Assembly: GCA_000004985.1 (NCBI GenBank)
Contig: GG738852.1
DNA from: Naegleria gruberi
Lineage: Eukaryota
Strand: one strand, 5' to 3'
Length of the DNA stretch: 64,000 nucleotides
The position numbers were made by a program, and so were the translations under genes. Positions 4,208 through 29,877 of the stretch are shown one piece after another; the first letter of the stretch is position 1, and each line of letters begins with the position of its first letter. Below the pieces are notes generated by a model that had not been told where the DNA came from, did not search any database, and worked only from the letters and a program-made list of their open reading frames with translations.

Positions 4208-5998
4208 ATGCAAAAATACTTCAACAAAAAAATGTCAACAAAAACAACAGCCCTTGACTCTATTCTCAAACACTTAATCGATAAGGATCAACAAGATGAT
4301 TCAGAAGATTCCATCAATAAAAACTTTATAGAGGATTTTGTTAATTCAAAAGTACAAGATAGAATTAAACATTGGATAAAATCATTATATGAATATCAAA
4401 AGAATTCATCATCACAAATAACATCATCGGGAATTAAAAAATTACTAGTAGATGGGTAGGTGTTTTTACATAGTATTTGATGTATTATTGATATTATTAG
4501 ATTTGATGAAGAACAAGTTTGGAGTCAGCTTGCAACATTTCATCAACCTCTTCTTTCACAACTCTCCAACAAGATTGACAAGATGGAAAATTTAGAATCG
4601 ATAGTAAATGACGAAGTTTTGCAATATTTAAGTGATTCAGATGACGAAGAACAAGAAGAAGGAGAAGAAAATGTTGATGAACGAGCACTCCGAAGAATGA
4701 TGTCCATGGATGAAAGTGATGAAGAGGATGACGAAGAAGATGGCATGGAAGAAGATAAACCAACCACAACAACAAGAAATAATAAGAAAACTCTGAGAGG
4801 AGATGAAGCTAAGGAGTATATAGCTGATGATTTTGAAGAACAAGATATCAATACATTCCTTGACGATATGGAAAAGAATATGGATGCTCTTGATGAAATG
4901 GATTACGATGAAAATGAAAAGCAAAATAACAGAGAAGAAAAGAGAGCCATGGGTGAATTATACGGAGATGAAGATATTGATGAAGATGAAGAAGAGGATG
5001 AAGAACCAAGATCAGGAAAGGAACAAAAATCAGCTTTTGAATTGGAACAAGAACGTTTATTGGAAAGAATGGAAGAATTGGAAAATAAGAATATCAGAAA
5101 TAAGGATTGGCAAGAAATTGGTGAAGTTGATGCTAAGAAGAGACCAATGAATTCACTTGTTGAAGAAGGAAAGTTATCATTTGAACATGCTCACAAAGCT
5201 AAACCAGTCATTACTGAAGAAATTACAAAGGATTTGGAAAGTATTATTATTAGCAGAATTGTCAGTGGTATTTATGATGATCCTGTGAAATTGTCTGATG
5301 AGGATAAGAATGAAGATTTAAAGCAAGACATTCAATTGGAACATGAAAAATCCAAGAAATCTCTCGCTCAAATCTATGAAGAAATGTACCTGAAAAAGGT
5401 TGAAGGAGTTGATATTGAAGAAGAAAAGAAGGAAGATCCAGTTGTCAAGGCAACCAAACAAAAAGTTCTTAAACAAGTTTCAGATTTGTTACGAGTTCTT
5501 AACCAAATGTCATCCTTTACCTATGTTGCCCCACCAAGAATTGATTTGGAAGACGAATCTGAAAACAAGACTGTTACAAATACAGTGACAGGAAAGGAAG
5601 AAGGTGAAAAGAATGCTAATGAAATTCTCCCAGCTGTCAAATGGTTACCACAGGCAGGGGAAGAAATGACCGAACAAGATAAGAAGAGAAAGAGAAGACA
5701 ATTCAAAGAAACAACAAGCAAAAAGGCAAAGAAGGCTAATGAATTAGTTGACAAATTGAATCCAGGAGCTTCTTCTCATGCCACAAAATTACTCGATGAT
5801 ATCAATCAAAGAAAGGATAATACAAAGAAGGAAAAGGCTTCAAAGTTGGAAGACGCTTCCGCTGTTGAATCTGACAAGATGTTTGGTAGCTCTAAACAAT
5901 TCTTTAACAAGATTCAAGATAATATTAGAAAGATTCACGGAGCTAAGGCAGCTAAGAAGGAAAAGAGTGGAGTTGTTAATAACAGTAAGGACGAATAA
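4208..5998 (+). CDS. MPP10: U3 snoRNP protein MPP10 (M-phase phosphoprotein 10). Two exons: join(4208..4455, 4501..5998), 581 aa.
   Basis: The acidic N-terminal half and C-terminal block SAFELEQERLLERMEELENKNIRNKDWQEIGEVDAKKRPMNSLVEEGKLSFEHAHKAKPVITEEITKDLESIIISRI...LEHEKSKKSLAQIYEEMYLKK are collinear with the human MPP10 core (KSWQLQGEVTAQKRPENSLLEE..HFDHAVRMAPVITEETT..LEDIIKQRI..LDHEKSKLSLAEIYEQEYIK). A 45-nt intron 4456..4500 (gtaggt...attattag) links the two ORFs in frame. ATG at 4208 (4154 is TTG). Confidence 0.8.
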
Positions 5999-6284
5999 AC
6001 GAGACATTCAAAATATTTTTGTAAATCAAAATCATTTCTGTTGAAGAAAACTACCACAATTATTCATTGAACAATCTCAGTTGTTTGACGAAACTGTCTC
6101 TCCACAAGTGGTTGGAAAGAGATTATCAATTAAAAAAGTACAATTTTAAAAATTGTATTCCTAATGATCTATCTTGGTTGAAGGATTCCTTAATATTTTT
6201 CTCAATCTCATAAGGTTCTCTCTGAAACAATTTTAATCCGATCTAGTAATGCAATATATAACGTACTTCTCTTAATAAAAAAGA

Positions 6285-9141
6285 ATGCTATCAAATGCAC
6301 CACCACTGTTGAATAAAACAATTGGACAGTTGGTTAGGCAGGAAACTGTGGAAAAACCTCTCAATCAATCTTCACCCCAACAACAGTCAAAGAGTGGCAC
6401 CACCTCTTCAGCAGGACAAACTGTTGTCCTCTCCGTTATTCCGGATGATAAGAAGAATTTAGAGAGTAGGGGAGGAAAAACCTTGATGCTCAATGTGGAG
6501 GTTATTGGAGAATCGAAATTTAAAGTACTCTCCAGCACCAAATCCAAGATTTCTGAAGTGTATGAAACGATATGTTCAAAGATTGGATTAAATTCGGAAG
6601 GTAAAAAGTACTTTTCCCTCTCTCAAATTGTCTATGATGAAGATACCGAAATAATGAGTAGGTTAACATAATATTTATTGAGAAAATTATAATTAATGAA
6701 TAGATAGGTTTTTGAATTTTGAGAAAACTGTGGAGGAGGAAAATGTATCATCCTCAAGTACTTTGAATTTCATTATTAAAGTCCTCAAGAAGCCTATTGA
6801 TATTAAGGATCTGCAGGCAGAGATTCTGTTTGTTAAACAATTGCATCACTTCTTCACAACCAGACTTTTCAAGGGCACTGAAAAGCAATCCATCTTGATG
6901 GCTTCACTAATGATTCAAATGAATTTTGGAGATTATGATCATGAAAAGCATAAGATTGGATTTTTAAAGTAAGTAGTGTAAGTTGGCATCAAATTCTCAT
7001 GAGAATAGTAAAATTGAATTGGAGCATCTCATTCCAATAAGTGTGACAAAGCATGATCATGCTTACTGGCAAGCGAGATTACTGAGGCTCTACAATAAAT
7101 GGAATGGAATGTCAAAAAAGGAAGCTGTCTATGCATTTATTGATGTTGCATGCAAGACATCACATTTTGGATTATCATTCTTTAGAGTTGAGGTTGGGGT
7201 GGAAAAGAGAAAGAGAAGTTTAGCAATTGGAGAAGATGGTCTTTTCCTCTTTGACAAGATTAACCTTGTAAGTTTCTTCAAGTTAATAATTAAGGTCTTA
7301 TTTCCATAAATCATCAGAAACCAGAATGTTGGAGATGGAGCAAGATTCAAACTTGGAGGTCAATTGTAAAAGATAAGCAGAATAGTACTCTTGAAATTGA
7401 TATAGTTGGAAGTAAGAATACTGTGTCTGTTAATTCCCCAAAGGAAACCCACCAAATGATTATTTACTTGATAGAAATGTATTATTCATTCCTACCAGAT
7501 GATATGAAAACTTGTAAATTGGATTCGGAAATTGACTCCTCTCCTTGCCTCTCTCTGTATCATAGGCCTCAAAAACGAACATTCATAGGAATGTTCACAA
7601 GTAGAGTTGAATATTTAGTGAGATACTATATGGAAATTAATGCTAGAGGAAGGAATGTACCTTTAAAAACAATTTGTAAACAGCTTGATGATGTGATAGA
7701 CGATGACACCACTCTTACCTCACTAAAAGTTGGTAGAGGAGATTTAGATGATGGAAATGTGAGCTTTTTATTGGATCCTTTGGAGGTTTGTTGTGCATAT
7801 AAGGCAGATATTAGCTTTCCTTGGAAGGAAAATTTGAATCTGACAAGTTTAGATTTTGGTGGAAATATCATAAGAGCCGAATCTGGAAGACTAATTGATG
7901 TAATTTCATATTTTACTAATTTAACATATCTTAATCTTTCTGGAGTGTTCTTGTATAATGAAAAGAAGAAGTTTTTAGAATTTCTCACAGTTAGCAAATC
8001 CTTGGAAGGTTTAGAGTTGTCCATGTGTGGACTGGATCACAAATTCCTCAAAAGTATTATGGAAATTGTAATGGGACCTTCTAGATCCAAGCTGAAAATT
8101 CTTAACGTTTCAAAAAACAGATTGAAAAACAAATCATTAGAGCTTATTTACAATTCTATGGAATTTTTTTCCTATGAGGAATTGAATATTGCTCAGAACA
8201 AGTTCAAAGCAGCCAAAGATAATATGGTAAAGGAATTTTTCAGGAAATTGGAGCCAAATCAAAAGATTACCAAATTGGATATTAGTGGAATGAATATTGG
8301 AGAAAAGATGGGTGAGTACTTGACTGAATTGATTGCTGTCAGTGCTTCACTTCAAGTTTTGAAAATGTCAAATGTTTCAATCAATGGTCTTGTATTTTAT
8401 AGAATTGGAAGAATTCTGAGAACTCATCCCTCCCTCAGTGAAATTGATCTGTCAATGAATAAGATATTCCAAAAGCTTGGAATTGAAGAAATTGAAGATG
8501 CTTTCTTCTTTCTCTCTTCAAACAAGAGGCTTATATCCATAGATATTTCAGATTGCTCTATCAATGAAAAGGAAGGTGAATATATTGCCAAATTTATGAA
8601 GGAAAACACAACAATAGATCGCTTTTCAATTGCTGGTAATACAATTTCGACATCAACATACGATTTACCTCCTATATGGATGGAAATGATTGAGCAAAAC
8701 ACAATTTTAAATTTGTTTGATTTTACAAATTGTAAACTGTCAAGAAGAGGAATCATATCTTTACTAAGTGCAATGAATAAGAGCAATAGTGCAAAGGAAT
8801 TGTATATGGGAAGAAATTTGATCGATTTCACAATTCCTGAAATTAGAGAAAATTTTAAAAAGCTAAAACTCAGAGTTGTGGATATGAGAATGATGTCCAT
8901 AAATGATAAACAAATACCACTAGTTGCTTCCATCCTCACAGAGAATCCATATATTGAAATTGTTAATTTTGAATCCAATCTAGTGACATTCAATGGAGGC
9001 GAAACATTTGTTAAAATTGTGGGAAAGAAGACTAATCTAAAAAAAGTCGTTTTTGTCTGTAATAGAATTAAGGAACCAGAGAAACCAGTTTTATTCAATT
9101 TATTTATTACCCACACTAATATCAATCACGTTGTTTTGTAA
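6285..9141 (+). CDS. FERM domain fused to ribonuclease-inhibitor-like leucine-rich repeats (906 aa). Four exons: join(6285..6657, 6704..6968, 7009..7267, 7318..9141).
   Basis: Exons 1-4 encode FERM_N (KTLMLNVEVIGESKFKVLSSTKSKISEVYETICSKIGLNSEGKKYFSLSQ), FERM_M (DLQAEILFVKQLHHFFTTRLFKGTEKQSILMASLMIQMNFGDYDHEKH) and FERM_C/PH-like (FGLSFFRVEVG...SLAIGEDGLFLFD...KPECWRWSKIQTWRSI...HQMIIYLIEMYY). They are followed by ~16 RNI-type LRRs (LNLSGV.., LELSMCGLD.., LNVSKNRLKNKSL.., LDISGMNIGEKMGEYLTELI.., IDISDCSINEKEGEYIAKFM..). Introns are 46, 40 and 50 nt, all GT-AG with phases consistent; total 2721 nt. Confidence 0.7.
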
Positions 9142-16459: not shown

Positions 16460-16744
16460 TTTTTTCAATCATAATTCAGTCAAATTAACAACAATATCTT
16501 TAAATTCAAGTACAAGAAAACGATAAGAAATATTGAGGATATTCCAATAGCTAATGAGCAAACAAATTTAGATTTGAGAAATATTTTCTAGCAATTTAAA
16601 AAAGAGAAAACCAAGAGGACAATTATGATTTGTGGAATAAGTGGAGGAGGACATTACAATTGACAGGAAGAAACCATCTCCTTAGTAAAGTTGGAAAGAT
16701 TTTTTAATTTCCTGTACCCTCTTGGAATCCTGTTGAAGTGTTAG

Positions 16745-17987
16745 ATGCTTCTGGGTGAAAAGAAAAAAATGTCATTCAATCCAACCTTTAGAAATTGCAT
16801 CTTTATTGCATCGAGTGATGAAGAGTTGGCAAAGACCAGAAGAAAACACGACCGTTTGAATGACGCCAGATTTTTTGAGGAATTGAATCAAACTCTGTTT
16901 GTTGCCTTTGATTGGAAATCTTCATTTACCCTGATGATGGAGCAGTATAATCAAAACCCGATAGAGTATTTCGAACAACAGGCATTAGCTAATATTGTCA
17001 ATGAATCCACACAAAACGTAGCGTTGGATGTGAAAAATTGTAAATTTTATTGTGTGATTAGAACTCCTTGGAATTATGTGAAACATTATGGAGATTTCAT
17101 CAAGTGGTTACAAATTATGAATCAATTAGGAAAGGAGGAAAAATTAATGACTTTTAATCATCCAGAATTATTAACGTGGAATTCTACCAAGAGATATCTC
17201 TTTGAAATTCAAGACTCGTGGGAAAATTACTCAATTGTTCCATCTGAGCTCGTTGATAAGGGTATTGCCGAGTCACTTTCCAATGAAGATATTATTGAAA
17301 AATATACAGCAAAATTCAATTGTGACAAGTTGGTTTTCAAACCATTGATTTCAGCTGGTTCTTACTTTACATTTGTTGTCTCTAAACAAGATGAGCATGC
17401 AAATGATTATGCCAAAGAATCATCCTCGAAAATGGATAAGCTTAAAGAATTTTTCCAATGTGAAAGGGATCAAGAATATCTAGATAGAAACATTATGATG
17501 GTTCAACCATTTATGGAGGAAATTGTAAATGATGGAGAGTATAGTTTCCTTTTTATCAACGAGAAACCAAGCCATATGCTTTGGAAGAGACCTAAAGCTG
17601 GTGATTTTAGGTTAGTTTTAATTTGATTTAAGCTTAATATTCCCATGACAATCATATATTGAAATTTATCCAAACAGAGTACAAGGTGATTATGGAGGAT
17701 CGAATACATGCATTCCAAAAGAAAGATTCAACTCTACCATTCTCGAAAATGCACAGAAACTGTTCGACAAGGTTAAGAAGGAAAAATCTCCAAATCACTT
17801 GTTGTTATACTGTCGATTGGATGTTATCATTGATTGGCAAACAAACGAGTTAAAGATTTGTGAATTGGAATTATTAGAACCTCATCTCTATTTTGAAACC
17901 ATTAATCCAAATGATAAATCTGTCGAACTTGCCTGGGAATGTAAACTCTACGAGAGTGTAGTTGCCCTTTCTCACAATACTCTTTAA
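16745..17987 (+). CDS. ATP-grasp fold protein (RimK/glutathione-synthetase-like ligase). Two exons: join(16745..17610, 17678..17987), 391 aa.
   Basis: C-terminal region YSFLFINEKPSHMLWKRPKAGDFR|VQGDYGGSNTCIPKE...LLLYCRLDVIIDWQTNELKICELELLEPHLYF resembles the ATP-grasp core (egdfRsNlhlGGsa ... e.N..P). A 67-nt intron 17611..17677 (gttagt...caaacag) joins ORF 16745..17626 to ORF 17799..17987 in frame. Confidence 0.5.
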
Positions 17988-18213
17988 AATAATTATCAAT
18001 TGGGATTAAATCTAATAAAAATCATCTAGATAACATAAGATATTTTCATCAACCATTCCTTTGCACTAACAACTCAACTCAAAATTGGTAAATTCGCCAC
18101 CACTTGAATCCCTTCCAATCAATATTGTGTTTCCATTACTCATAAATTCATTGAACAAAAGGCAATCAATTTTAAGATTTTAAAAAAATATTTGAAAACA
18201 AAAATACAACAAA

Positions 18214-19065
18214 ATGTTCGCCCCAAAGAGTCGTTCCCTCCTCACCATGATTGGTTCTCGCGCCAGAGTCCACACTTTTAAGAATGTTTTTGCAGCACCA
18301 GCTTGCTCTAGAAATTTCTTTGGTTTTAATAATAACAATAATAATACAGGTTCATCATGGGAACAAAAATCACAACAAACACCACAACAAGAACAACAAG
18401 CTGAAACTAAGAAACCAGAACAAACTCAACAACAAGAACAACAACAAACTCAACAACAAACAGAAAACACCCAAAAGACTCAACAACAAACAGAAAGCAA
18501 GCCTGCTGTTGATGATGCCAGAGTGAAAGAATTGGAAAAGGAAATTGAAAATTTAAAGAATAGCAATGCCAAGTATGACGACCAACTCAAGAGGGCTGTT
18601 GCCGAAATGGCCAACGTTCGTCGTATTGCTAAGAACGATGTCGATAATGCTAAAAAGTTTGCTCTCCAATCCTTCTCTAAAAATCTCCTCGATGTTGTGG
18701 ATAATTTGGAAGCTGGTTTGAAGCACTTGATAGAAGAAGATGTTTCTCAAATTGTTAAATTGGCTCAAAATAATCCAGAATGCAGTGAAGAGATGCGAAA
18801 GAAGGCTAATGCCTTGTTCACTTCAATTGAAGGTGTCAAGAGAACTGAAAATGTCTTGTTGAAGGTCTTGGAAAGAAACGGAGTCACAAAGATGGAAGTT
18901 GCTGAAAAGACACCATTCGATCCTAATTTCCATGAAGCCATGATGAAGGTTCCACCATCCGAAAAGACACCACACAACACTGTTGCTATGGTTTTGAAGA
19001 GTGGTTGGATTCTTAATGAAAGAGTTTTGAGACCTGCCCAAGTTATCGTTGCCATTCAAGATTAA
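18214..19065 (+). CDS. GRPEL1: Mitochondrial GrpE nucleotide-exchange factor (Mge1/GRPEL) with a Gln-rich N-terminal insertion, single exon, 283 aa
   Basis: ATG at 18214, followed by a presequence-like N-terminus (MFAPKSRSLLTMIGSRARVHTF). The GrpE core KELEKEIENLKNSNAKYDDQLKRAVAEMANVRRIAKNDVDNAKKFALQSFSKNLLDVVDNLE...MMKVPPSEK..VAMVLKSGWILNERVLRPAQVIVA is recognisable. The coiled-coil/beta-sheet arrangement and the hallmark motifs are conserved. Confidence 0.85.
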   Translation: MFAPKSRSLLTMIGSRARVHTFKNVFAAPACSRNFFGFNNNNNNTGSSWEQKSQQTPQQEQQAETKKPEQTQQQEQQQTQQQTENTQKTQQQTESKPAVDDARVKELEKEIENLKNSNAKYDDQLKRAVAEMANVRRIAKNDVDNAKKFALQSFSKNLLDVVDNLEAGLKHLIEEDVSQIVKLAQNNPECSEEMRKKANALFTSIEGVKRTENVLLKVLERNGVTKMEVAEKTPFDPNFHEAMMKVPPSEKTPHNTVAMVLKSGWILNERVLRPAQVIVAIQD

Positions 19066-19434
19066 ATTTCTTTTGTTATTTCAGTATTATTTTCATAATT
19101 TTTAATTCCAATTTTCTTCGCATTCCATAGTGTGGCTTAAGCCCAAAGTTTTACCATGTTATCGAAAACAATATAAAGAGAAAGCGAAAGGGTTTAGATA
19201 GATATTATTAACACCAATCCAATTGATTTAGAGCTATTGTTCAATCTTGCTGCAACAGATTTTTATATTGTAGTAATGAATCTTTCGACCTCCGGAGAGT
19301 GCATCTTCATTAAGGCAACAAGGGATAACAGAGGAATAATGGACGCCAAATGATTATTAAATTTATATTTTAAAAAATTGCAATATCTTCTGTTCTGTAA
19401 CATTCTGAAGATGGAAGGCCATCAAATCCATCAA

Positions 19435-21150
19435 ATGAAAAGGCTTGTAATTTTATTATTGATTGCCTTGGTTGTATGTGTAGGCGTGACCAATTCAGCC
19501 AATGGACAAAAACCAAGCTTTCAAAAGATAATTAATAATATTAGAGCAAAATCATGTAATCTTGTCGGTTTGGATGGTGTTTCCAAATGTAAGGACATGT
19601 TAAAGGTTGGAGCTAATGGAGAGAAGAATATTAGGGATCAAATTAAGGCAGGCATTGGCTTTGGTCGTTATACACATGAAGTAATGCTCCCTGTTCTCAA
19701 ATCTAAACAAGGACAAGATGGTATTGTTGCTGGAGGAGTTCTCAATGCTGAATTCATCAAACAAATGAAGAGTCCTAGAGAATTCTATGAGATGATGTAT
19801 CCAAGCGCAACCAATAAGGATAACTCAAAGATTTACAATGGATTATACGCTCGTTCTGCTGGCATTATTTTCGACAGTTATTTTGCTGGAAGTTTGACAA
19901 TTACCAGTGCTCAAAAACAATTTTTTACTCATTATGTGGAAAGTGAAGATGTTGTAACTGATGAATTCCAACAAATTATTGACTTGTTACCTGATGCATT
20001 CGATCAAGATGTTTATAATCTAGTTCTTACATATTTTGGGGATGTTGTTATGACTAAGGTCAGCTATGGAGGTGTTGTTGATCAGACCACTCTCATCAAG
20101 GAATGTTACACTGATCCTAAAATGATGGATTATATCAAGAGTCAATTGAATAGTCTCATTAATAACAAGACTGATACTCCTCCTAATGGTTTTATTAATT
20201 ACAGAAAGGTCGAACAGGTTGATATTGCAGGTGGAAATCCAGAACTCTCACTTGTTCAAAAGAGAATCGCCTCATTTGCTGAAAATCCAGTTCCTGTCCA
20301 ATTCGATGTCAAACCAATATATCAAGTATTTCCTACTGGTACCAAGAGAGAAAACATGAAGAAAGTTTACGATGCGCTTGTTCAACAACAATCAAACATT
20401 GTTAATGACATACTGAAAAAAATTGAAGATAATAAGCTTGTTGAATTCTTAAAGGGACAAACTATTTACATTTACGATGTACAAACAAGCCTATGTAAGA
20501 ATCCTATTGTCTTTTTCAATAATTGTCCTCATCAAAAATTGTGTAGAACTGCTTGTGCTAACAAGTTTGAGAGCTCTATTTTGTCACCAAATGGTGTTAA
20601 GGAAATTGAACGTTACAATATTCACATTTGTGGAAGTTCTGTTACTCGTGATATCATCAATGGCGAATTCACTTCCAATCCTATTAAACATGACAAGGAT
20701 GAATATGTTTTGCATCCTCGTTTGGAATCTGATGAAACTCCAAAGGATAATACCATCACAGAATTTTTGGACAGATTTGGCATTATTGATATCAACAACA
20801 ATGCAAGATCAGTTTTGATGAACAAGACAAGAAGTTCTTCTCCTGGAAATCATGTTAGAAAGGGAACTTCATGTCCAGCTGGTTATGTTGCTCTGGAAAA
20901 GTTTAGAAATGCTGATGGTGCCTTTGGTGTTCGTGTCAATATTTATAATGCCAATGGGAGTGTATGGAAGACTTATTTCCAAACTCAAATGCTCAATTCT
21001 GGATGTGTTGATGTTCCGTATAAGAAGGTTATGCTTTTGGATCCATTTGTTTCATGGAGTGATGACAATTTAAAGTTTACTGCTTGTGCTATGTGTACTC
21101 CTGCTGTTAGTGGTGGAAATAATTTGAGTTGTAATTGCCCTACTTTCTAA
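19435..21150 (+). CDS. Secreted protein with a MACPF-like region and a Cys-rich C-terminus (~571 aa)
   Basis: Signal peptide MKRLVILLLIALVVCVGVTNSANG (ATG 19435; upstream ATG 19411 also in frame). The segment IIDLLPDAFDQDVYNLVLTYFGDVVMTKVSYGGVVD resembles the MACPF signature (..LP..f.......fi..YGTHfv.....GG). Ten or more Cys lie in the last 150 aa. Single long ORF. Confidence 0.5.
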   Translation: MKRLVILLLIALVVCVGVTNSANGQKPSFQKIINNIRAKSCNLVGLDGVSKCKDMLKVGANGEKNIRDQIKAGIGFGRYTHEVMLPVLKSKQGQDGIVAGGVLNAEFIKQMKSPREFYEMMYPSATNKDNSKIYNGLYARSAGIIFDSYFAGSLTITSAQKQFFTHYVESEDVVTDEFQQIIDLLPDAFDQDVYNLVLTYFGDVVMTKVSYGGVVDQTTLIKECYTDPKMMDYIKSQLNSLINNKTDTPPNGFINYRKVEQVDIAGGNPELSLVQKRIASFAENPVPVQFDVKPIYQVFPTGTKRENMKKVYDALVQQQSNIVNDILKKIEDNKLVEFLKGQTIYIYDVQTSLCKNPIVFFNNCPHQKLCRTACANKFESSILSPNGVKEIERYNIHICGSSVTRDIINGEFTSNPIKHDKDEYVLHPRLESDETPKDNTITEFLDRFGIIDINNNARSVLMNKTRSSSPGNHVRKGTSCPAGYVALEKFRNADGAFGVRVNIYNANGSVWKTYFQTQMLNSGCVDVPYKKVMLLDPFVSWSDDNLKFTACAMCTPAVSGGNNLSCNCPTF

Positions 21151-21475
21151 TTGTTTATAGAAAGGGTCATTATTGAATTTAATAAAATTATGTAGAATAA
21201 TGATATTTCGAAAAGAAAATATGTTAACTTAAGAAACGACCAAGGTACGGCAGAAAATAGGAACGGGAATAGGTATGCAAACAAGGCATGGATATTTTTA
21301 CAATTTTTACAAGAAATAAATAAACAATATGAATTTTAAATTAATCGTAATATTATAGAATGAGTCCTTTATTACATAAATTTAATTTTTTACCTGAAAA
21401 GGTTGAACAACTATCGAATAAATATATTATTATTTCATTATTAAATTTTTTTATTGTAAAAGAATTTCAAAATTT

Positions 21476-23472
21476 TTAAAATTTATAATAATTCATGATT
21501 AACATAAATTGATTCAAGTAAAACTTGGAATCAATGTAAACAACTTGGCATCTAGCATTGATATCTTTCCAATCAACGTTTAAATTGGAAGATTTCACTC
21601 TATTCAATTTTCTGAATTGACATACTTGGTGATAATCATTTGTAACAATCCACACTTTTCCAAATTTAACTGTATCTTTTGTATGTGATTGAATACATCC
21701 TATGTATAATTTTCCTTCTTGTTTAAACATTAAGTATTGATTTGGAGCAATTGCTTTAAACCATTGTTTTGATTTCTTTCGTAACCAAGGATATTTAGCA
21801 TTAAGACTGACATGTAACTTTTCAAATGCTGCACCCCGCTTTTCAACATCCTTATGATTCGATCCATCATTAAACTTTTTAAAAAGTTTGTGTTTCAATT
21901 CGAATAATAAAGCCCAAAAGTATCTAGGACTTCCCCATTCTTGACAATCTTCAAATAAATGAGTTACCCAATGGAAATTAACATTATGACATTTGTTTGG
22001 ATATAATTCAACATAATGTTCTCTGAATTGGAGGAAAATAGATTTGGATTTTTCAATAGAAAGAATTGTTACCTCATTTCTTAATAACATACTCGTCCAT
22101 GCAATATGTTCTACCCAACAAACAACATGTCTAGTTCTTTTTTCTTGTGAAATATGTTTCAATTCCTTATTTGAATAAATTAACTTGTAAATTATTGGAA
22201 TACTATAAAAACCAAATTCTAAAAATTCGTCAGCTGAACAATTCAAATAATTTGATGCTCTCATTCTAATTGATTCTCCAGAACTTAAATAAAACTCATC
22301 TATAATATCCTGAAAATCAGAAAATAATCTTGGGTATGAAAAATATTCTATTAATGCAGTCAAATGTCTTCTTAATTCACCTTGAACAAACACATGCATA
22401 AAGTCAACTGTTGAATTCTTAAATACGTCATGATTTCTTAGCTTATACAATGGGTTATCTTGTTTTTCAAGTGTAACACCATTTTTTTTCATTTGAGTGA
22501 GCTTTCTTTGTACAGTATTGTAATCAAATTTTGAATCAATTAATTCAATTTCTTGTTTTGATAATAATTTAAACCCTTTTCTTTCCTTTTTAGGTGTTGT
22601 TTCAATACTTTCATGAATTGAAACAGCTTCATCTACAGTTCTAATGCTAAATGTATGTTCTAAAACTGGTTCATCTTCCATATTATCAGTTTCTTGATTT
22701 TCTTCATCTTGATCATCTTCTTTTCCTGTTTCTGGATTGAAATAATTACATTCTTCATCAATATCATTTGGATTGTGCGTTTGGAGATCAGTTTCAACTT
22801 GCAATTCTTGTTCTGTTTCCGTTTCATGTTCTTTACAGGGCTTTGGTATAAATTGTTTCAAATTTAAAGACGGATTCTTGAAACAGAACTCATTGTATGA
22901 ATCAATTAATTCATCTGGAGTTGAGCTGTACATATTTTTTGGACAATGACATCTGGAGCAAAGATATTGTTCCATGAATAAAGTAAACCATCTTTGAACT
23001 GAATCCCAAATCCAAGGACCTAATACGTATTGAAGAGATATTTCTTTTTGTAAACCTGAATGTTTCACAATAAATGTTTTCCCTTCAATTTCATTATATT
23101 CATTAACAAACATTTCCAACATTTTAAATAAACCCTTAATATTTCTACATTTCCCAAGTAATGAAATGGATTCCATTGAGCTTNNNNNNNNNNNNNNNNN
23201 NNNNNNNNNNNNNNNNNNNNNNNNNNNNNNNNNGAAAAAGACTTTGAACAAAAGGGGCATATTAAGTTGGTAAATGAATCAAAATTTTTACATTCTTGAT
23301 TTTTACACCTAACTTTAATTGCCCTATGAAAATGAGATTTTTTGTTACTTGAACTACAAATTTTGACATCAGTTGATGATTTCACATAATTATTACAACT
23401 AGAACAATACAGTTTTGCTTTTCGAGGGTCAACCCTGTGTGAAAACAATATTTTCGCTTGTGGAATTTTCAT
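21476..23472 (-). CDS. TNP2-like transposase (CACTA/En-Spm, Plavaka/KDZ superfamily) candidate, intronless, ~730 aa, interrupted by a 50-N assembly gap
   Basis: ATG at 23472. N-terminal Cys/His cluster (CSSCNNY..C..H.H..CKNQEC..CPFC), as in the transposase-associated zinc finger of TNP2. C-terminal motif HNVNFHWVTHLFEDCQEWGSPRYFWALLFELKHKLFKK matches the DUF4218/TNP2 signature (H...HL......GP.....WMyPfER....LK). It is an intact 2-kb ORF without introns in an intron-rich genome. Two ORFs (23065..23472 and 21476..23260) are the same frame either side of an N run. Confidence 0.5.
21476..23472 (-). mobile_element. Putative DNA transposon (CACTA/TNP2-like) coding region. Element termini are not defined.
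   Basis: Transposase-like ORF as described above. It is flanked by very AT-rich non-coding DNA. An assembly gap falls inside it, which is typical of multi-copy repeats. No terminal inverted repeats (CACTA...TAGTG) could be identified by eye. Confidence 0.4.
23184..23233. other. Assembly gap (50 N)
   Basis: Run of n inside the transposase-like ORF. Confidence 0.99.
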
Positions 23473-23615
23473 TTATTTTTTTTTCCAAAATTTTGCCGAT
23501 ATTTTAAAAATAGATTGTAAAGTGTTCATATCACCACTGCCAGAGAAAAGTAGAAAAACAACAACAAAAAAATATCAGTAAGTTAACATCAATATTCGAC
23601 TCACTTTCGACCAGA

Positions 23616-24504
23616 CATGCCAGCAAGATCACAACCAACCCCTTCAAATCAATATACCTCACCAAGATCAGCATCTGATCAAGAAGAATCTGATCAAGAA
23701 TCAACTCAAAACAAACAAACTTCACAAGGTACACCACAAAAGAAAGTATCAAAGAGTAAGTATTCTATCTAATTATTACCAGTGTGATAATTCTTATTGA
23801 CAGAAAGAACAAAAAGAATTATACCAAACCTTTCCGATACAAAATTTGCAAGTTTAAATCATACTAGATTAAAAAAGGTTTGGCAAACCAAACATAAAGT
23901 GTAAGTTATTCGTATAATTATTAAATTAAATACAGAATAGGTTTTCCAAAGGTATTATTCAAGGTTTTTACAAATATGTACAAAAACAAGGTTCGGATTT
24001 TGTACTAGATATTTTAAAGAAGGAAGAATTGTTAGTGTCATCACTTTGTAAAATTATTTTCAGAAACTTTGGAAGCAAGAAGTGAAGAAGAGCTTACTGA
24101 AAGAGAGGAAGAAGATTTGAAAGAAATTGTATGTTAATTTTATTTATTTTTAATTAATTTTAATTATTTTTCAAATATTTTAGGGTTTGCATTATTGTTC
24201 AAACATTTTAAGTAAAAAACTTTCTAATTTATCTCAAGGTGTTAGAGTTGCAAAATATGATGATCCTCCTATTTCTGAACACAGTGAAGATGAACTAACG
24301 GATGAACAATCTAAGAAACCAACTAAAAGGTTTGAATCTTATACTAAGGATGAAAATGGAAAGTTTTCAACTGAAGTTTGTTTTCGTGGATCTACTGAAG
24401 AATTTATTACAGAATTTCAAAGGCATATCAGAAACAAATCAAGTGCTAATTGTAACAGAAGAATTAATAGACGAAATAACATTAAACCAATAAATTTAGA
24501 TTAA
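23616..24504 (+). CDS. Hypothetical Lys/Glu-rich protein, multi-exon, exon junctions unresolved
   Basis: ATG at 23616 (MPARSQPTPSNQYTSPRSASDQEESDQESTQNKQTSQGTPQKKVSKS) ends at a gtaagt donor (23756). Downstream exon-like blocks run in the same direction: ...ETLEARSEEELTEREEEDLKEI + gtatgt, and ORF 24187..24504 (KYDDPPISEHSEDELTDEQSKKPTKRFESYTKDENGKFSTEVCFRGSTEEFITEFQRHIRNK). I could not close the reading frame across all junctions. Confidence 0.3.
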
Positions 24505-24574
24505 TTACATTTATTTTAAATTTTTAAAAATTTAACATTCCAAAATTGGATTCACCAAATATAGCATTAACTAA

Positions 24575-24690
24575 TGTTGTTTCTCTTTGTATTTCTTTTC
24601 TCGAGTCTGTACTTGTTTCTTATGACATTACTCTATTTGTTTCTTTTACAATTTCTCTTCATGTGCTTATTAATGTTTCTTTTACAGTTT
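24575..24690 (+). repeat. Pyrimidine-rich degenerate direct repeats (TGTTTCT core; the 13-mer TGTTTCTTTTACA occurs twice, 36 bp apart)
   Basis: Copies lie at about 24579, 24613, 24637 and 24673. They produce the spurious Leu/Phe-rich ORF 24574..24867. The region is ~400 bp upstream of PEX5. Confidence 0.4.
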
Positions 24691-25095
24691 AGTTTTAGAC
24701 ACACAAAAGAGGTGCGGTCAAGGTACGACAAAGGAACGTTAAAAATAACACAAAAAGACCGTGCCTATTCTGCATCTTCTACGTTACTATTGCTCTCCAA
24801 GGATACAAGACAATCTCCTATTGTTAAGATGTCTGCACCTCCCAGTTTAACCTCTGAATTCATTTAACAACTTGGTCTCAACAAGCAGAATGATCTTGAC
24901 ATTGTCCAATTTATTCAAAAACAACAATGTCCTCATCAAATCAATGATTCTCAAAAGCACAGATATTAAGATTTGTTAAGAGGAGTTGAATTAAATCAAA
25001 TTTCGGACAAGAATATTTCCAAAATTTTATTCCTCTCTTCCGATGAAAATAATTAATGGAAAAACGAACAAAAATTTTATAATTAATTATAAAAA

Positions 25096-26668
25096 ATGTT
25101 GCGTGATGTATTTACTTCAGAAAAGGGATCAGAGGGAAGCTCATCCACCTCTCGTGGTGGCAATCCACTCTCCGGTACAATTAATTCAACATTTAATAAT
25201 ATAAGACAACAAGAGGATTTTTATTCAAATTATCAACAGCAAGGTGGTTCATCATCGGGTGTTGGTTCTTCGAGTAGTCATGAACAACAACCATTTTCTC
25301 CCTTCCAATTATCTTCATCATCACATTTAAATAGTAGAAATAATAACATGTCTGCAGTTGATAGAATCAAAATGCGAGAGAGAAGTGAACGTATTACAAG
25401 ACACTTGTATCCCGACTCACAAGCCACAGATATGATTAATGAACAAAATTTAAATTCAAGATTTGGAGGAATGAGTCTAGGTGCTGGTCAAAATAATTTA
25501 CTCAATTCTAATAACATGATGAATATGAGTATGGAAGAGAGTGAAAATTCAAATCTCTTCCTTCAAAATCATTCTATTGATTCATATATTAATTCACTTC
25601 AACAACAATTAACAACTATCGGAAATCATATTAATGCTGGAAGTATTGAATTACATCCTCCATATACATTCCTAACCTCTCACACCACAAATCCCTACCT
25701 CCAACACCAAGATCATCAATATCAAAATTTGTATGAATTGGCCAGAAAATTCCTCTCCGAACAAAATCAACAACAAACATCCAATACTACCAATACAGAA
25801 CAAGCCATTTTGGCTTTGGAAGCTCAAGTCATTTTGGAACCTCATCATGCAGATGCTTGGTACCTGTTGGGTCAGTGTCATGCAGAATGTGATGATGATG
25901 CAAGAGCCATCTCATGTTATGCTGAGGCTGTCAAGCAAGATCCAAATCACTTGGATGCTCTCGTAGATTTGGGTGTTTCAAATGCCAATGAATTACAAAA
26001 ACACTTGTCACTCTTTTACTTGAAACGTTGGATTTCTTCACATCCAATTTATGCAAGTATTGTTGGAGATGTATTCAAAGATACAGATATTGGAGACCAC
26101 TTATCTGCAACAATGGTAGACTTTTATCAAATTTATTCAACTGTCAGACAGGCATTCGAGAAGGTTGTAGAAGAATCCCCAAGTAAGGATGCTAAACTTC
26201 ATACTGCCCTTGGTGTATTGTATCACTTGGTAAATGATTTTGATAAGGCTATTAATCAATTCAAAATGGCATGTCAATCCGATCCAACCAATCATAGTTT
26301 ATGGAATAAGCGTGGGTGCAACACACGCCAATGCCAAGAAACCAGAACTGGCAATGAATNNNNNNNNNNNNNNNNNNNNNNNNNNNNNNNNNNNNNNNNN
26401 NNNNNNNNNGCATTGATGCTACAGAAGAGCTTTAAATTTGAAACCTGACTATGTGAGAGCTTGGGTAAATTTAGGTGTTGCTCACAGTAATAGAGCTGAT
26501 TACGAGAACGCAGCCAAGTTCTACTTGAGAAGTCTCAAGTTATGTCCAAGAAATAATAGTGTATGGCTTTATTTGAGTTTTGATTTTAGCTGTCTGAAGA
26601 GAAAGGACCTGGTTGAAAAGTGTGAGTACAGAAATGTAGATCTTTTCAAGTCTGATTTCCAATTTTAA
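25096..26668 (+). CDS. PEX5: Peroxisomal targeting signal 1 receptor PEX5. Its TPR domain spans a 50-N gap and shows an apparent 1-nt frameshift at ~26318.
   Basis: ATG at 25096. N-terminal GGNPLSG matches the conserved GGxNPLMK box. TPR region EAQVILEPHHADAWYLLGQCHAECDDDARAISCYAEAVKQDPNHLDALVDLGVS...LGVLYHLVNDFDKAINQFKMACQSDPTNHSLWNK is collinear with human [43 protein letters not shown] continues in the +1 frame as VGATHANAKKPELAMN. After the gap the frame is LRLKPDYVRAWVNLGVAHSNRADYENAAKFYLRSLKL (human [36 protein letters not shown]). Confidence 0.8.
26360..26409. other. Assembly gap (50 N)
   Basis: Run of n inside the PEX5 TPR region. Confidence 0.99.
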
Positions 26669-27123: not shown

Positions 27124-27315
27124 CAAAAATTTACTGGCTAGCAACTTACACTTCATTTTTTTAAAAACTAGAAAAAAACGCCTCCACAGAAGCTTTTTTA
27201 GTCTCTTCTTAGTATCTTTTCTACTATCACCAAAACAATACGGAGGAAAAAGACACAATCCTTTTTGCAACATCTTATTTTTTTCTTAATAATAACACAA
27301 TACAACAAGTTCAAG

Positions 27316-29561
27316 ATGGGCTCAGGAGGTTCAACAGGATACGTTGGAGAAAGAGAACCACCTCTCCATCCTTTATATCAAGTACCTAAAGGAAATAGTA
27401 ACCCTATTGTAACACAACTAGGAACCTTCCAAAAGACATTTTGCGAAATGTATGATAAGGAAGGAGGAGGTAAAAACTATGAAAAGATAAGTCAGCGTAA
27501 TCAGGCAAATAATCAGAATATTCTTGCTTCCAGGAAATTGTGGGTTGGTTGTTCGCCAACGCCCGACCTTGAGAGTCTTATTATTGCTGTTACAGACTTG
27601 AGAGATAGATATTATGAAAAAGTTCTTTCTCAAAAGAGTTTGACTGATATGGTACGTTTCTTAATAATACTGTTTCTAACTTTATGTCCTATTGTTGAAA
27701 TCACCAACAACAACAAAACATGTTGTTCCTTTATTAAACTATTCCCTAATAGAAAAACTCCTTGGGTAAGGAATTAAAATTGGCCAACATGGAATGGAAA
27801 ATGTTCTTTGAGACTCTAAGAGCTTCAATTACTAATTCTAGTAGATTGAAGGTAAATATTGATGGAGCAACAGATCAATGTAAAATCCTCCTCGAGTTAA
27901 CAGCAAACAAGCTCAAGGCAGACATTGCTCTTAAACTTACCAGAGTCGGAGAAAAGAAGGAAAATGATAAGAGTGCAAACTATTGGACACAAATCTTCCA
28001 CTCTTTCATTTATCCACTTTATGGATTTTACTTGTTAAAGACAGAATCAACACCAACAGAAAAGATTGATCAACTTGAACGTGATTTGAAAGTTGTGAAG
28101 GAAAAGTATCAACACTTCCTTCATAGAAGAGAAAAGCTAAGCAACCTGAAGAAGGGTGTAGGTGCTGTTTCTAAGTCTTCAGATGACTCTGCTTCTAAGG
28201 CAGAATTACTCCGCAAACAAAATAGCGAGTTGGAGAAACGTAAGAAGGAAATTGAAAGTTTGATCTATCCAGCCAATCAAGTATCCAAGTACTTGATTTT
28301 GGTCAAGAAGAAGCTAATCAAGAGTAAGGCCATCAATGAAAAGGAACATGAAAACTTTAATGTTGTTACCAATTCACTCAGATTTGACTCCATCCACAAG
28401 ATTGAACACGGAAAGAATTTGAAAGAATATGATCAAGAAGTTATTCAATTTATCAAGGCCAAGTTTGTTGACTCTGCTCATATTGGGGGTAAATCAAAAC
28501 CACAAGAAGATCCAAAGCCACCAGTTGCTGCAAAGGCTGGTTCTGTTACTGACATGTCCTCTGCTGCAAAACCTGGTAAGGAAGAACTCAATAGTGTATT
28601 TGAAAAGTTAGACAAGTGGAACTATGATGCTTTCAAGATTAATGAACTTTCTAATGGACATCCACTTTTCTTTACATCCTATGCTATTTTCCTCAAGTAT
28701 GACTTGTTGAATAAGTTCAACATTAATGAAAAGGTGTTGATTAGCTTTTTACGAGAGGTTGAGGCTGGATATCGCCCAGTTCCATATCACAATAATATGC
28801 ACGCTACTGATGTCACTCAGTGTATGCACTATATTATCAGTAAGGGAGGTCTGTCTCAGTTCATGACTGATGAAGATATTCTTGCTTCTCTCCTTTCCTG
28901 TATAGTTCACGACTACCAACATCCAGGTCTTAATAACAACTTCCAAATGAATTCCCACTCCTATCTTTCCATACTCTATAACGACAGATCTGTACTAGAA
29001 AACCACCACGTAGCCGAAGCATTTGAATTGATGCGAAACAAGGACTTTGATATTTTCCAAACATTATCAGAAGAACAATATAAGGACGTAAGAGAAACAA
29101 TGATTCAAATGATTTTGGCAACAGACATGGCTCTCCATGCCACAATATTAGGTAGATTCAAAACAAGAATAGAGTCCGAGTCAGAAGGTGCAGAAATTGA
29201 TTTCTCGTCTAAGGAAGATGTAAGATTGGCATTGCAAATTGCCATCAAGATTGCTGACGTAAGCAATCCAGCTAGGCCATTAAAGTTGTATCTCAAATGG
29301 GGTAAACGAATTGAAGAAGAATTCTATGCACAAGGTGACAAGGAAAGAGAGCTAGGAATTACAATGTCTCCATTCATGGATAGAAATAAGCCAAGCTTGA
29401 ATGGTCTCCAATCTGCCTTTATTAACTATATCGTTTCTCCAATGATGAAGAGCTATTGTAGACTGCTTCCAAAGATGAACTTTACTATGGAACATATCCA
29501 AACCAATCTAGAATATTGGAAGGAGAACAAGACTGTAAACTTGTTGGATATTCAAGATTAA
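27316..29561 (+). CDS. Class I 3',5'-cyclic-nucleotide phosphodiesterase with an N-terminal MGxxxS myristoylation motif and a coiled-coil region. Two exons: join(27316..27651, 27753..29561), 714 aa.
   Basis: Catalytic domain YHNNMHATDVTQCMHYII...HDYQHPGLNNNFQMNSHSYLSILYNDRSVLENHHVAEAFELM...ILATDMALH carries the HD/PDEase_I signature. N-terminus MGSGGST. A 101-nt intron 27652..27752 (gtacgt...tctaac...ccctaatag) joins ORFs 27265..27777 and 27762..29561. Confidence 0.8.
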
Positions 29562-29877
29562 TTGTACAAAGAATAAAAACCGCCATCACTGTAACAATTA
29601 ATTTGGTGTTTTTTCCTTAAGGAAAAAAGCAAAATGCATTATGGCAGGCATCTATTTAAGAAGAAATAAATAGTAATCAGGGTCCAAGTTTTATCCTCAC
29701 AATATCATTGGAGAAGCAGAATTCTAATTAGTGTTGTTATAAAAGGACCATCATCATGTTTAAACAAGTTTAACTTCATTCCTAATCAACCAGTAACCAT
29801 GTGCTTGTGGAGCTGTAAAGTGTGATTGTGGGAAAAAAATATTTTTCAATTTTAGGGATTTAATTGGTTTTGAAAAA

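Follow-up and report, generated by a model that had tools for sequence, protein, structure and literature searches.

The question raised by this locus is whether a long open reading frame (ORF) of transposase type belongs to a mobile element, to a host gene derived from such an element, or to a dead remnant of one. The locus lies in a stretch of 64,000 nucleotides from contig GG738852.1 of the Naegleria gruberi assembly GCA_000004985.1. The whole stretch is called the window here, and the ORF is read from its minus strand. The annotated gene model at the locus, NAEGRDRAFT_64044 (a 'predicted protein' on a 938-kb scaffold), is identical (100%) to the last 485 codons of the ORF. The locus is most probably a real, recently mobile transposon copy and not a domesticated gene. 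With a probability of about 85%, window positions 21240-24802 represent one copy of an autonomous cut-and-paste DNA transposon from a heterolobosean lineage within the CMC/Plavaka/Transib ('CMCT') group. The element would add a branch to an established type of transposon and does not amount to a novel type of system.

Strain polymorphism and extent of the element

A metagenomic contig of 5 kb, L011, carries a homologue of the GrpE gene of the window (18214-19062) with 96% identity. In blastn comparisons, L011 1-4617 corresponds to window 16593-21236 at 98.7% identity, and L011 4739-5050 corresponds to window 24802-25116 at 97.5%. Because L011 jumps from 21236 to 24802, a very close strain lacks window 21230-24802, i.e. 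the transposase ORF together with 1330 bp upstream and ~240 bp downstream of it. The small multi-exon gene at 23617-24504 also falls inside the segment lacking in L011. An earlier note on this DNA, made from the sequence alone, had placed the feature at 21476-23472. These limits are too narrow, and the element reaches from 21230 or 21240 to 24802.

The strain breakpoints coincide with, or lie close to, transposon-like tips (Table 1). The 5' terminus CCTTGGAGAGCAATAG occurs only once in the window and shares CCTWGGAG with the terminus of an element from Naegleria lovaniensis (CCTAGGAGCAGA) described below. On the transposase strand the 24802 boundary reads CCTTGGAGAGCA; this boundary ends in CCTTGGAG, which resembles the N. 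lovaniensis tip (quoted for comparison as CCTAGGAG). The two ends of the window element form an imperfect, gapped inverted repeat of ~40 nt with a score of 26, compared with 15.3 +/- 3.2 for shuffled sequences (5 of 500 shuffles reach the observed score). The G+C content (GC) of the element is 28.2%, 5 points lower than the 33.4% of the window. The layout also agrees with the N. lovaniensis element, with 1330 versus 1290 bp upstream of the transposase ATG and ~4.4 kb in total.

The sequence CAAGGTACG is found exactly twice in the 64 kb, at 21241-21249 and 24719-24727 (+), each time near an element end. If one mismatch is allowed it also occurs at 23725 and 23987, and 4 of 9 such matches lie within the 3.6 kb of the element. 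These occurrences could reflect a subterminal binding motif or chance.

Table 1. Positions of the element, its coding pieces, motifs and termini in the window
Feature	Position	Strand	Remarks
Whole transposon copy (probable)	21240..24802	-	3563 bp as assembled; ~4.4-4.5 kb with ~0.9 kb in the gap
Ten nucleotides TAAGAAACGA	21230-21239		between host breakpoint and CCAAGG tip; origin uncertain
3' terminus CCAAGGTACGGCAGAAAATAGGAACG..., read inwards	21240..21299	+	CCAAGG ten bases in from the breakpoint
5' terminus CCTTGGAGAGCAATAG (transposase strand)	24787..24802	-	coincides with the strain breakpoint
Transposase ORF, N-terminal part	23236..23472	-	79 codons from ATG, no stop; Cys/His zinc-finger cluster
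CSSC of the N-terminal Cys/His cluster	23395-23406	-	
CKNQEC of the N-terminal Cys/His cluster	23290-23307	-	
CPFC of the N-terminal Cys/His cluster	23248-23259	-	
Assembly gap	23184..23233		exactly 50 N, placeholder
Transposase ORF, part after the gap	21476..23182	-	568 codons (23182..21479) and stop 21478-21476, no internal stop; holds second catalytic Asp, CxxC, HxxxH, catalytic Glu and C-terminal beta domain
GPWIWD, second catalytic Asp	23003..23020	-	D212 of paralogue P0002, D427 of the N. lovaniensis ORF
CSRC, C(2)C zinc motif	22949..22960	-	15 residues past the second Asp; invariant C442/C445
Acidic low-complexity insert (KEHETETEQELQ...DDQDEENQETDNMEDE)	22655..22834	-	between CxxC and the helical insertion domain
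FHWVTH, H(3)H zinc motif	21959..21976	-	invariant H699/H703
LLFELKH, catalytic Glu	21890..21910	-	20 residues past the second His; invariant E723
Block FHWVTHLFEDCQEWGSPRYFWALLFELKHKLFKK	21875-21976	-	C-terminal block cited in the earlier note
C-terminal beta-rich domain	21479..21769	-	~90 residues; strands at residues 556-631 in the P0002 model
Small multi-exon gene	23617..24504	+	divergent from the transposase, ATGs 145 bp apart; exon structure putative, from ORFs; no Pfam domain

A sister element in Naegleria lovaniensis

The related element of N. lovaniensis is a textbook cut-and-paste transposon and evidently recent. It measures 4391 bp in each of six copies (L002-L007, on six contigs of GCA_003324165.2; locus coordinates 4328-8718). 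The copies are found in six different gene neighbourhoods and show 0-14 nt differences (at least 99.6% identity). The ends are perfect 12-bp terminal inverted repeats CCTAGGAGCAGA, and a 2-bp target duplication is present in all six cases (AT, AA, TT, TT, AA, TT). The 870-aa ORF of the element is intact and free of introns; the annotation has no more than a 742-aa 'hypothetical protein' for it. Within the 1290 bp upstream of the transposase there is a small gene on the opposite strand. The N. lovaniensis copies look currently active.

The window element and the N. lovaniensis element share the protein family (28% identity), the length class, a ~1.3-kb 5' region with a small divergent gene, and tips of the form CCTWGGAG. 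They differ in that the window copy is single and has degenerate ends, whereas the N. lovaniensis element has six copies with clean ends. No similarity was detected between the non-coding parts of the two elements, and the N. lovaniensis terminal repeat was not found near the window ORF.

A small gene placed head-to-head with the transposase was observed in four elements: in the window (23617-24504, +), in L004 (4778-5480, -), in L008 (890-1504, -) and on the contig of P0004 (1283-2034, -). The start codons of the small gene and the transposase are 137-184 bp apart. Among these four small genes neither mutual similarity nor a Pfam domain was detected.

Only one other relative of the window protein was found in N. 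gruberi. This paralogue, P0002, is 35-38% identical to it, and the frames of both are open. N. lovaniensis has a second, degenerate family member (L001, PYSW02000058.1 9032-10921) that is spread over three frames and covered by gene models of 238, 121 and 308 aa. It is 37-44% identical to P0002 and lies in an unrelated gene neighbourhood. L001 is the closest N. lovaniensis homologue of the window gene, but it is nearer to P0002, non-syntenic and frame-broken. In N. fowleri a 186-aa 'hypothetical protein' (FDP41_013229) shares a 90%-identity cluster (that of P0017) with the protein of the N. lovaniensis element, and this species therefore carries at least a fragment of a very similar transposon.

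Identification of the transposase family

The homology of the window protein to TNP2/CACTA/Plavaka transposases is visible only by profile and fold comparison. The comparison with Pfam that the earlier note had named as its check was negative: the Transposase_21, DUF4218, Transpos_assoc, Plavaka and KDZ models gave no match at E <= 10 to the window pieces, to P0002 or to the full-length N. lovaniensis ORF. Word-index homologue searches returned almost nothing outside N. gruberi, and an exhaustive search was needed. Using a two-sequence profile and hmmsearch against 1.84 billion representatives, 154 matches were found at E <= 1e-3 and 45 at E <= 1e-10. The relatives are often 830-930 aa at full length and come from metagenomes, N. 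lovaniensis, N. fowleri and Willaertia magna. Several 'hypothetical proteins' of Naegleria and Willaertia are pieces of this transposase family.

A Pfam scan of 53 relatives found Transposase_21 in 7 proteins, DUF1258 in 3, Plavaka in 2 and DUF4218 in 2. The relative P0027 (E 2.7e-19 to the family profile) scores 40.1 bits on Plavaka against a gathering threshold of 26.3 and aligns to the family profile in a profile comparison with a probability of 100% (E 7e-67). Two further family members match Plavaka weakly, and P0007 has a weak DUF4218 match (E 0.014). A thrips protein with a Transposase_21 domain (P0158; 63 bits) is matched by the family profile at E 1.4e-11. Aligned to the family with hhalign (96.9% probability, E 1.5e-10, 406 columns), it has both D, CxxC, HxxxH, GP and E in register. 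The assignment to DDE (Asp-Asp-Glu) transposases of the TNP2/CACTA/Plavaka group made in the earlier note is thus borne out by profile and fold comparison.

The JGI metagenome contigs yielded no close relatives of the window protein and no second copy of its element's 5' terminus. A literature search found no paper linking Naegleria to CMC or Plavaka elements. Naegleria transposons have hardly been catalogued, and published surveys report nothing but totals: all transposons together at 0.1-0.3% of the genome, or unclassified DNA transposons at 1.25%. The suggestion that the lineage stands outside the catalogued families holds, in that curated models do not cover it.

Catalytic residues, zinc ligands and predicted fold

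The residues D340, D427, C442, C445, H699, H703 and E723 (N. lovaniensis numbering) are invariant across 14 full-length members of the family. The window copy keeps every visible invariant catalytic residue and zinc ligand; the first D falls in the assembly gap. Its GPWIWD, CSRC, FHWVTH and LLFELKH motifs match the invariant family residues, in the order expected for the CMCT group. The D-D-C(2)C-H(3-4)H-E signature is described for EnSpm/CACTA, Mirage, Chapaev, Transib, Plavaka and RAG1 (PMC12730594). In the hhalign comparison the Asp of GPWIWD, an invariant alignment column, stands opposite 'CDTPAK' of the TNP2-domain protein, and the Glu of LLFELKH stands opposite 'PLEN'.

The N-terminal Cys/His cluster reported in the earlier note (CSSC, CKNQEC and CPFC, 23248-23406) is present. 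The N-terminal piece aligns to a C..C / C..C....CP.C cluster of 13 full-length relatives, and the cluster is the zinc finger of the transposase family. The C-terminal block that had been likened to DUF4218 is also there and corresponds to the HxxxH...E part of the catalytic core, but the Pfam DUF4218 model does not match it. After the CxxC motif the window protein has an insert of ~60 residues rich in E, D, Q and T, which the paralogue P0002 lacks.

Structure prediction was carried out on P0002. With a two-sequence alignment AlphaFold was useless (predicted local distance difference test, pLDDT, 37), but with a 54-sequence alignment it gave a model with a pLDDT of 90.9 and a predicted template modelling score (pTM) of 0.89. 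In a Foldseek search of the PDB, ranks 1-22 were all RAG1 core (E to 1.7e-11, ~620 columns, TM 0.5-0.6). HzTransib came next at E 1e-5, and nothing else was below E 0.01; all 25 matches at E <= 0.001 were RAG1 or HzTransib. The paralogue model therefore has an RNase-H-like catalytic core of RAG1/Transib type. Its C-terminal domain is a small barrel whose sole structural matches are weak and belong to the Sm/LSm fold (E 0.02-0.2).

Coding sequence and assembly gap

The complete transposase is predicted to be a single intronless gene of ~950 aa on the minus strand. In the earlier note the ORF was described as ~2 kb long, intact and broken only by a gap. The visible two thirds indeed contain no stops, which amounts to 647 stop-free codons in 28%-GC sequence where stops arise easily, but the size was wrong. 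The second ORF piece begins at the family motif ESISLLG, and in full-length relatives such as the 870-aa N. lovaniensis ORF this motif is 306 aa away from CPFC. Because of this spacing ~0.9 kb of coding sequence must be unseen, and ~300 codons, including the first catalytic Asp (Y-x-D-x-F motif), probably lie inside the gap. The two ORF pieces are in different frames when the 50-N placeholder is counted, which is uninformative because the gap size is nominal.

The gap had also been read as a sign of a multi-copy family, and this reading is unsupported. The 90% cluster of the protein maps to a single contig, and the sole further relative in N. gruberi shares 35% identity with it. A second 50-N gap is located at 26360-26409 inside an unrelated TPR-repeat gene (ORF from 25096). 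Since this gap is identical, the one in the transposase tells nothing about repeat collapse. The intronless ORF does not stand out against an intron-rich background, as had been proposed. It is ordinary here because 29 ORFs in the window reach 250 aa or more, with 1199 and 1675 aa for the two longest, and under half of N. lovaniensis genes, only 47%, have an intron (PMC6125883).

Comparison with described transposon groups

The nearest named family is Plavaka, and the Naegleria elements may lie inside it or beside it. The window element resembles Plavaka (PF18759; PlavakaA/B of Agaricomycotina) in the D-D-CxxC-HxxxH-E order and in its large intronless transposase gene, and the family member P0027 is above the Plavaka gathering score. 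PlavakaA has target duplications of 2 bp, as does the N. lovaniensis element (PMC12730594). Unlike Plavaka, the Naegleria proteins remain below the threshold of the model, the host is a heterolobosean and not a fungus, the termini are CCWWGG and not TGT..ACA or CATCA..TGATG, and the Naegleria element carries no TET/JBP gene.

Within the wider CMCT group target duplications measure 2-5 bp. This agrees with the 2 bp of the N. lovaniensis copies; none is visible at the window copy. The termini of CMCT elements are 5'-CA..TG-3' in most cases, and here the Naegleria elements deviate, with CCTAGG...CCTAGG in N. lovaniensis and CCTTGG.../...CCAAGG in the window. Multiple copies, inverted repeats and target duplications are all found for the N. 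lovaniensis element, while the window offers one copy, a presence/absence polymorphism and an imperfect repeat.

In relation to EnSpm/CACTA TNP2 proteins (Transposase_21 + DUF4218) and Mirage-like proteins (DUF1258), the similarity consists of the 96.9% profile-profile match over 406 columns with catalytic and zinc residues aligned, and of the window C-terminal block, which corresponds to the DUF4218 region. The window element is not a CACTA/EnSpm element in the strict sense. The window protein does not reach the gathering thresholds of Transposase_21, DUF4218, Transpos_assoc or Plavaka, there are no CACTA termini, the duplications of the N. lovaniensis sister are 2 bp and not 3 bp, and no TNPA-like second protein can be recognised.

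RAG1 core and Transib (6dbo, 6cg0, 6pqn) provide the sole significant structural matches, and these cover nearly the whole P0002 model. The motif order is the same, and the catalytic Glu follows the second His at a distance of 20 residues, as in RAG1 (H942-E962). On the other hand, sequence identity is 9-11% with no sequence-level match, there is no RAG2-like partner, the duplications are 2 bp instead of 5 bp, and both the N-terminal zinc finger and the C-terminal beta domain differ.

Evaluation of alternative explanations

Several observations weigh against an intact, mobile transposon at this locus. The window protein itself matches no Pfam transposase model, no PDB sequence was matched with either the 2- or the 54-sequence profile, and the structure model is that of a 35-38%-identical paralogue, not of the window protein. 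With ~300 codons in the gap, intactness is unproven for about one third of the transposase. The otherwise invariant Pro before HxxxH is Val in the window (NVNFHW versus PNFH). Only one N. gruberi copy is known, from a search that did not extend to the rest of that genome. The inverted repeat is weak (p ~0.01), with tips CCTTGG versus CCAAGG, and agreement with the N. lovaniensis terminus is limited to 7 of 8 nt, which does not reach significance in a local alignment. Searches for ungapped inverted repeats, confined to the narrow spaces that separate the ORF from its presumed neighbouring genes, found nothing above chance. To take this as a sign of a gene without termini would be wrong, since the element extends further than had been supposed and takes in the 'neighbouring gene'. 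The window copy shows no target-site duplication, its flanks being GA and AT. Finally, L011 is a metagenomic contig of unknown strain and its empty site is unclean: L011 4611-4738 comprises ~128 bp unrelated to the window, in the place of ~10 bp at 21230-21239. The site has therefore been rearranged as well as occupied, and there must have been a deletion or filler with or after the insertion, or a repaired excision in the other strain.

Some of these features would be expected of a domesticated host gene derived from a transposase, i.e. a single-copy gene without functional termini that is kept by selection and has a cellular role like that of RAG1 or PiggyMac. Within the 90% identity limit the gene occurs once, on a single contig, the two old N. 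gruberi paralogues (35% identical) both retain open frames, all visible catalytic residues are kept, and the window copy shows poor terminal inverted repeats without a target duplication. Domestication is nevertheless improbable, because a 98.7%-identical strain lacks the whole segment, the gene together with 1.6 kb of non-host DNA around it, with breakpoints at transposon-like tips. A fixed gene with a syntenic orthologue and no transposon ends is not what is found: N. lovaniensis has no syntenic orthologue, its closest homologue being elsewhere, frame-broken and nearer to the other paralogue. GC is 5 points under that of the surroundings, and the sister element is clearly mobile. The earlier note had left the choice between a recently active and a domesticated element; recent mobility stands and domestication is disfavoured. 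Membership in the Kyakuja-Dileera-Zisupton (KDZ) group, which the earlier note had also considered, is more doubtful still and can hardly be maintained. An N-terminal Cys-rich region and a large DDE protein would suit it, with nothing more specific. The KDZ Pfam domain is present in none of the 53 relatives, in which Transposase_21 and Plavaka do occur. The CxxC and HxxxH motifs between the second Asp and the Glu, together with the RAG1/Transib fold, are marks of CMC/Transib/Plavaka (PMC12730594), and target duplications are 2 bp, compared with 7 bp in Kyakuja and 8 bp in Zisupton (PMC12730594).

A dead relic is a more serious candidate, although still an unlikely one. Under this explanation the transposase would be non-functional with lesions hidden in the gap, one end would be damaged and the copy would be immobile. 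The unseen third of the ORF, the poorly matching ends without a target duplication, the extra rearrangement at the site (128 bp versus 10 bp) and the substitution of the invariant Pro are all compatible with it. The 647 visible stop-free codons, the retention of all visible invariant catalytic residues and zinc ligands, and the strain polymorphism, which argues for a recent event, speak against decay. The recently mobile transposon copy is thus retained as the reading of the window locus. This copy would still be catalytically competent. Given the poor match between its two ends and the lack of a visible target duplication, it may have lost its mobility.

Proposed mechanism and significance

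The predicted transposase of the window element has three parts: a zinc finger at the N-terminus, a DDE core of RNase-H-like type into which a CxxC/HxxxH zinc module is inserted, as it is in RAG1 and Transib, and a beta domain at the C-terminus. If it works like its homologues RAG1, Transib and the CACTA-type enzymes, it would bind the CCWWGG-tipped inverted termini through its N-terminal zinc finger and its core. The D-D-E site, supported by the zinc module, would excise the element, which would then be joined to a staggered 2-bp target and give rise to the 2-bp duplication. The window copy would have entered the lineage of the sequenced strain, or would persist only there.

A broader proposal is that Naegleria harbours an undescribed and still active branch of the RAG1/Transib/CACTA/Plavaka transposases, characterised by CCWWGG termini, 2-bp duplications and invisibility to Pfam. 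It is put forward tentatively, at slightly less than an even chance, because of the six near-identical intact N. lovaniensis copies and the strain-polymorphic N. gruberi copy. If true, it would speak for the presence of the RAG1-like transposase architecture at a deep level of the eukaryote tree, in Discoba, and it would supply a ready-made endogenous cut-and-paste vector for a genus without genetic tools.

The window locus and its N. lovaniensis sister together give a fully delimited reference element for the annotation of heterolobosean genomes, and the host range of the RAG1-like transposase architecture is extended to Discoba. The accepted view of how such elements work is unchanged by these findings. 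Among the side results, the fully delimited N. lovaniensis element, which appears to be active, is the most useful. An endogenous cut-and-paste element might be developed for transgenesis or insertional mutagenesis of Naegleria, also in relatives of the pathogen N. fowleri.

Genomic neighbourhood

No positional orthologue of the window transposase was found in N. lovaniensis, where the GrpE region is rearranged and gives no empty site. In that species GrpE is head-to-head with a phosphodiesterase gene (L012 6920-10933). A Naegleria-like organism with 80% identity in GrpE (L009/L010) shows the same head-to-head arrangement. In N. gruberi GrpE (18214-19065) and the phosphodiesterase gene (27312-29570) are 8 kb apart and in the same orientation, and between them are a MACPF gene, the transposon and the TPR gene. 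The different arrangement of GrpE and the phosphodiesterase gene in N. gruberi points to a local rearrangement. The MACPF gene, which adjoins the element (19378-21150, +), is conserved in the related strain (L011 2795-4531); its product is 590 aa long and has a MAC/perforin domain (Pfam MACPF, E 4e-8).

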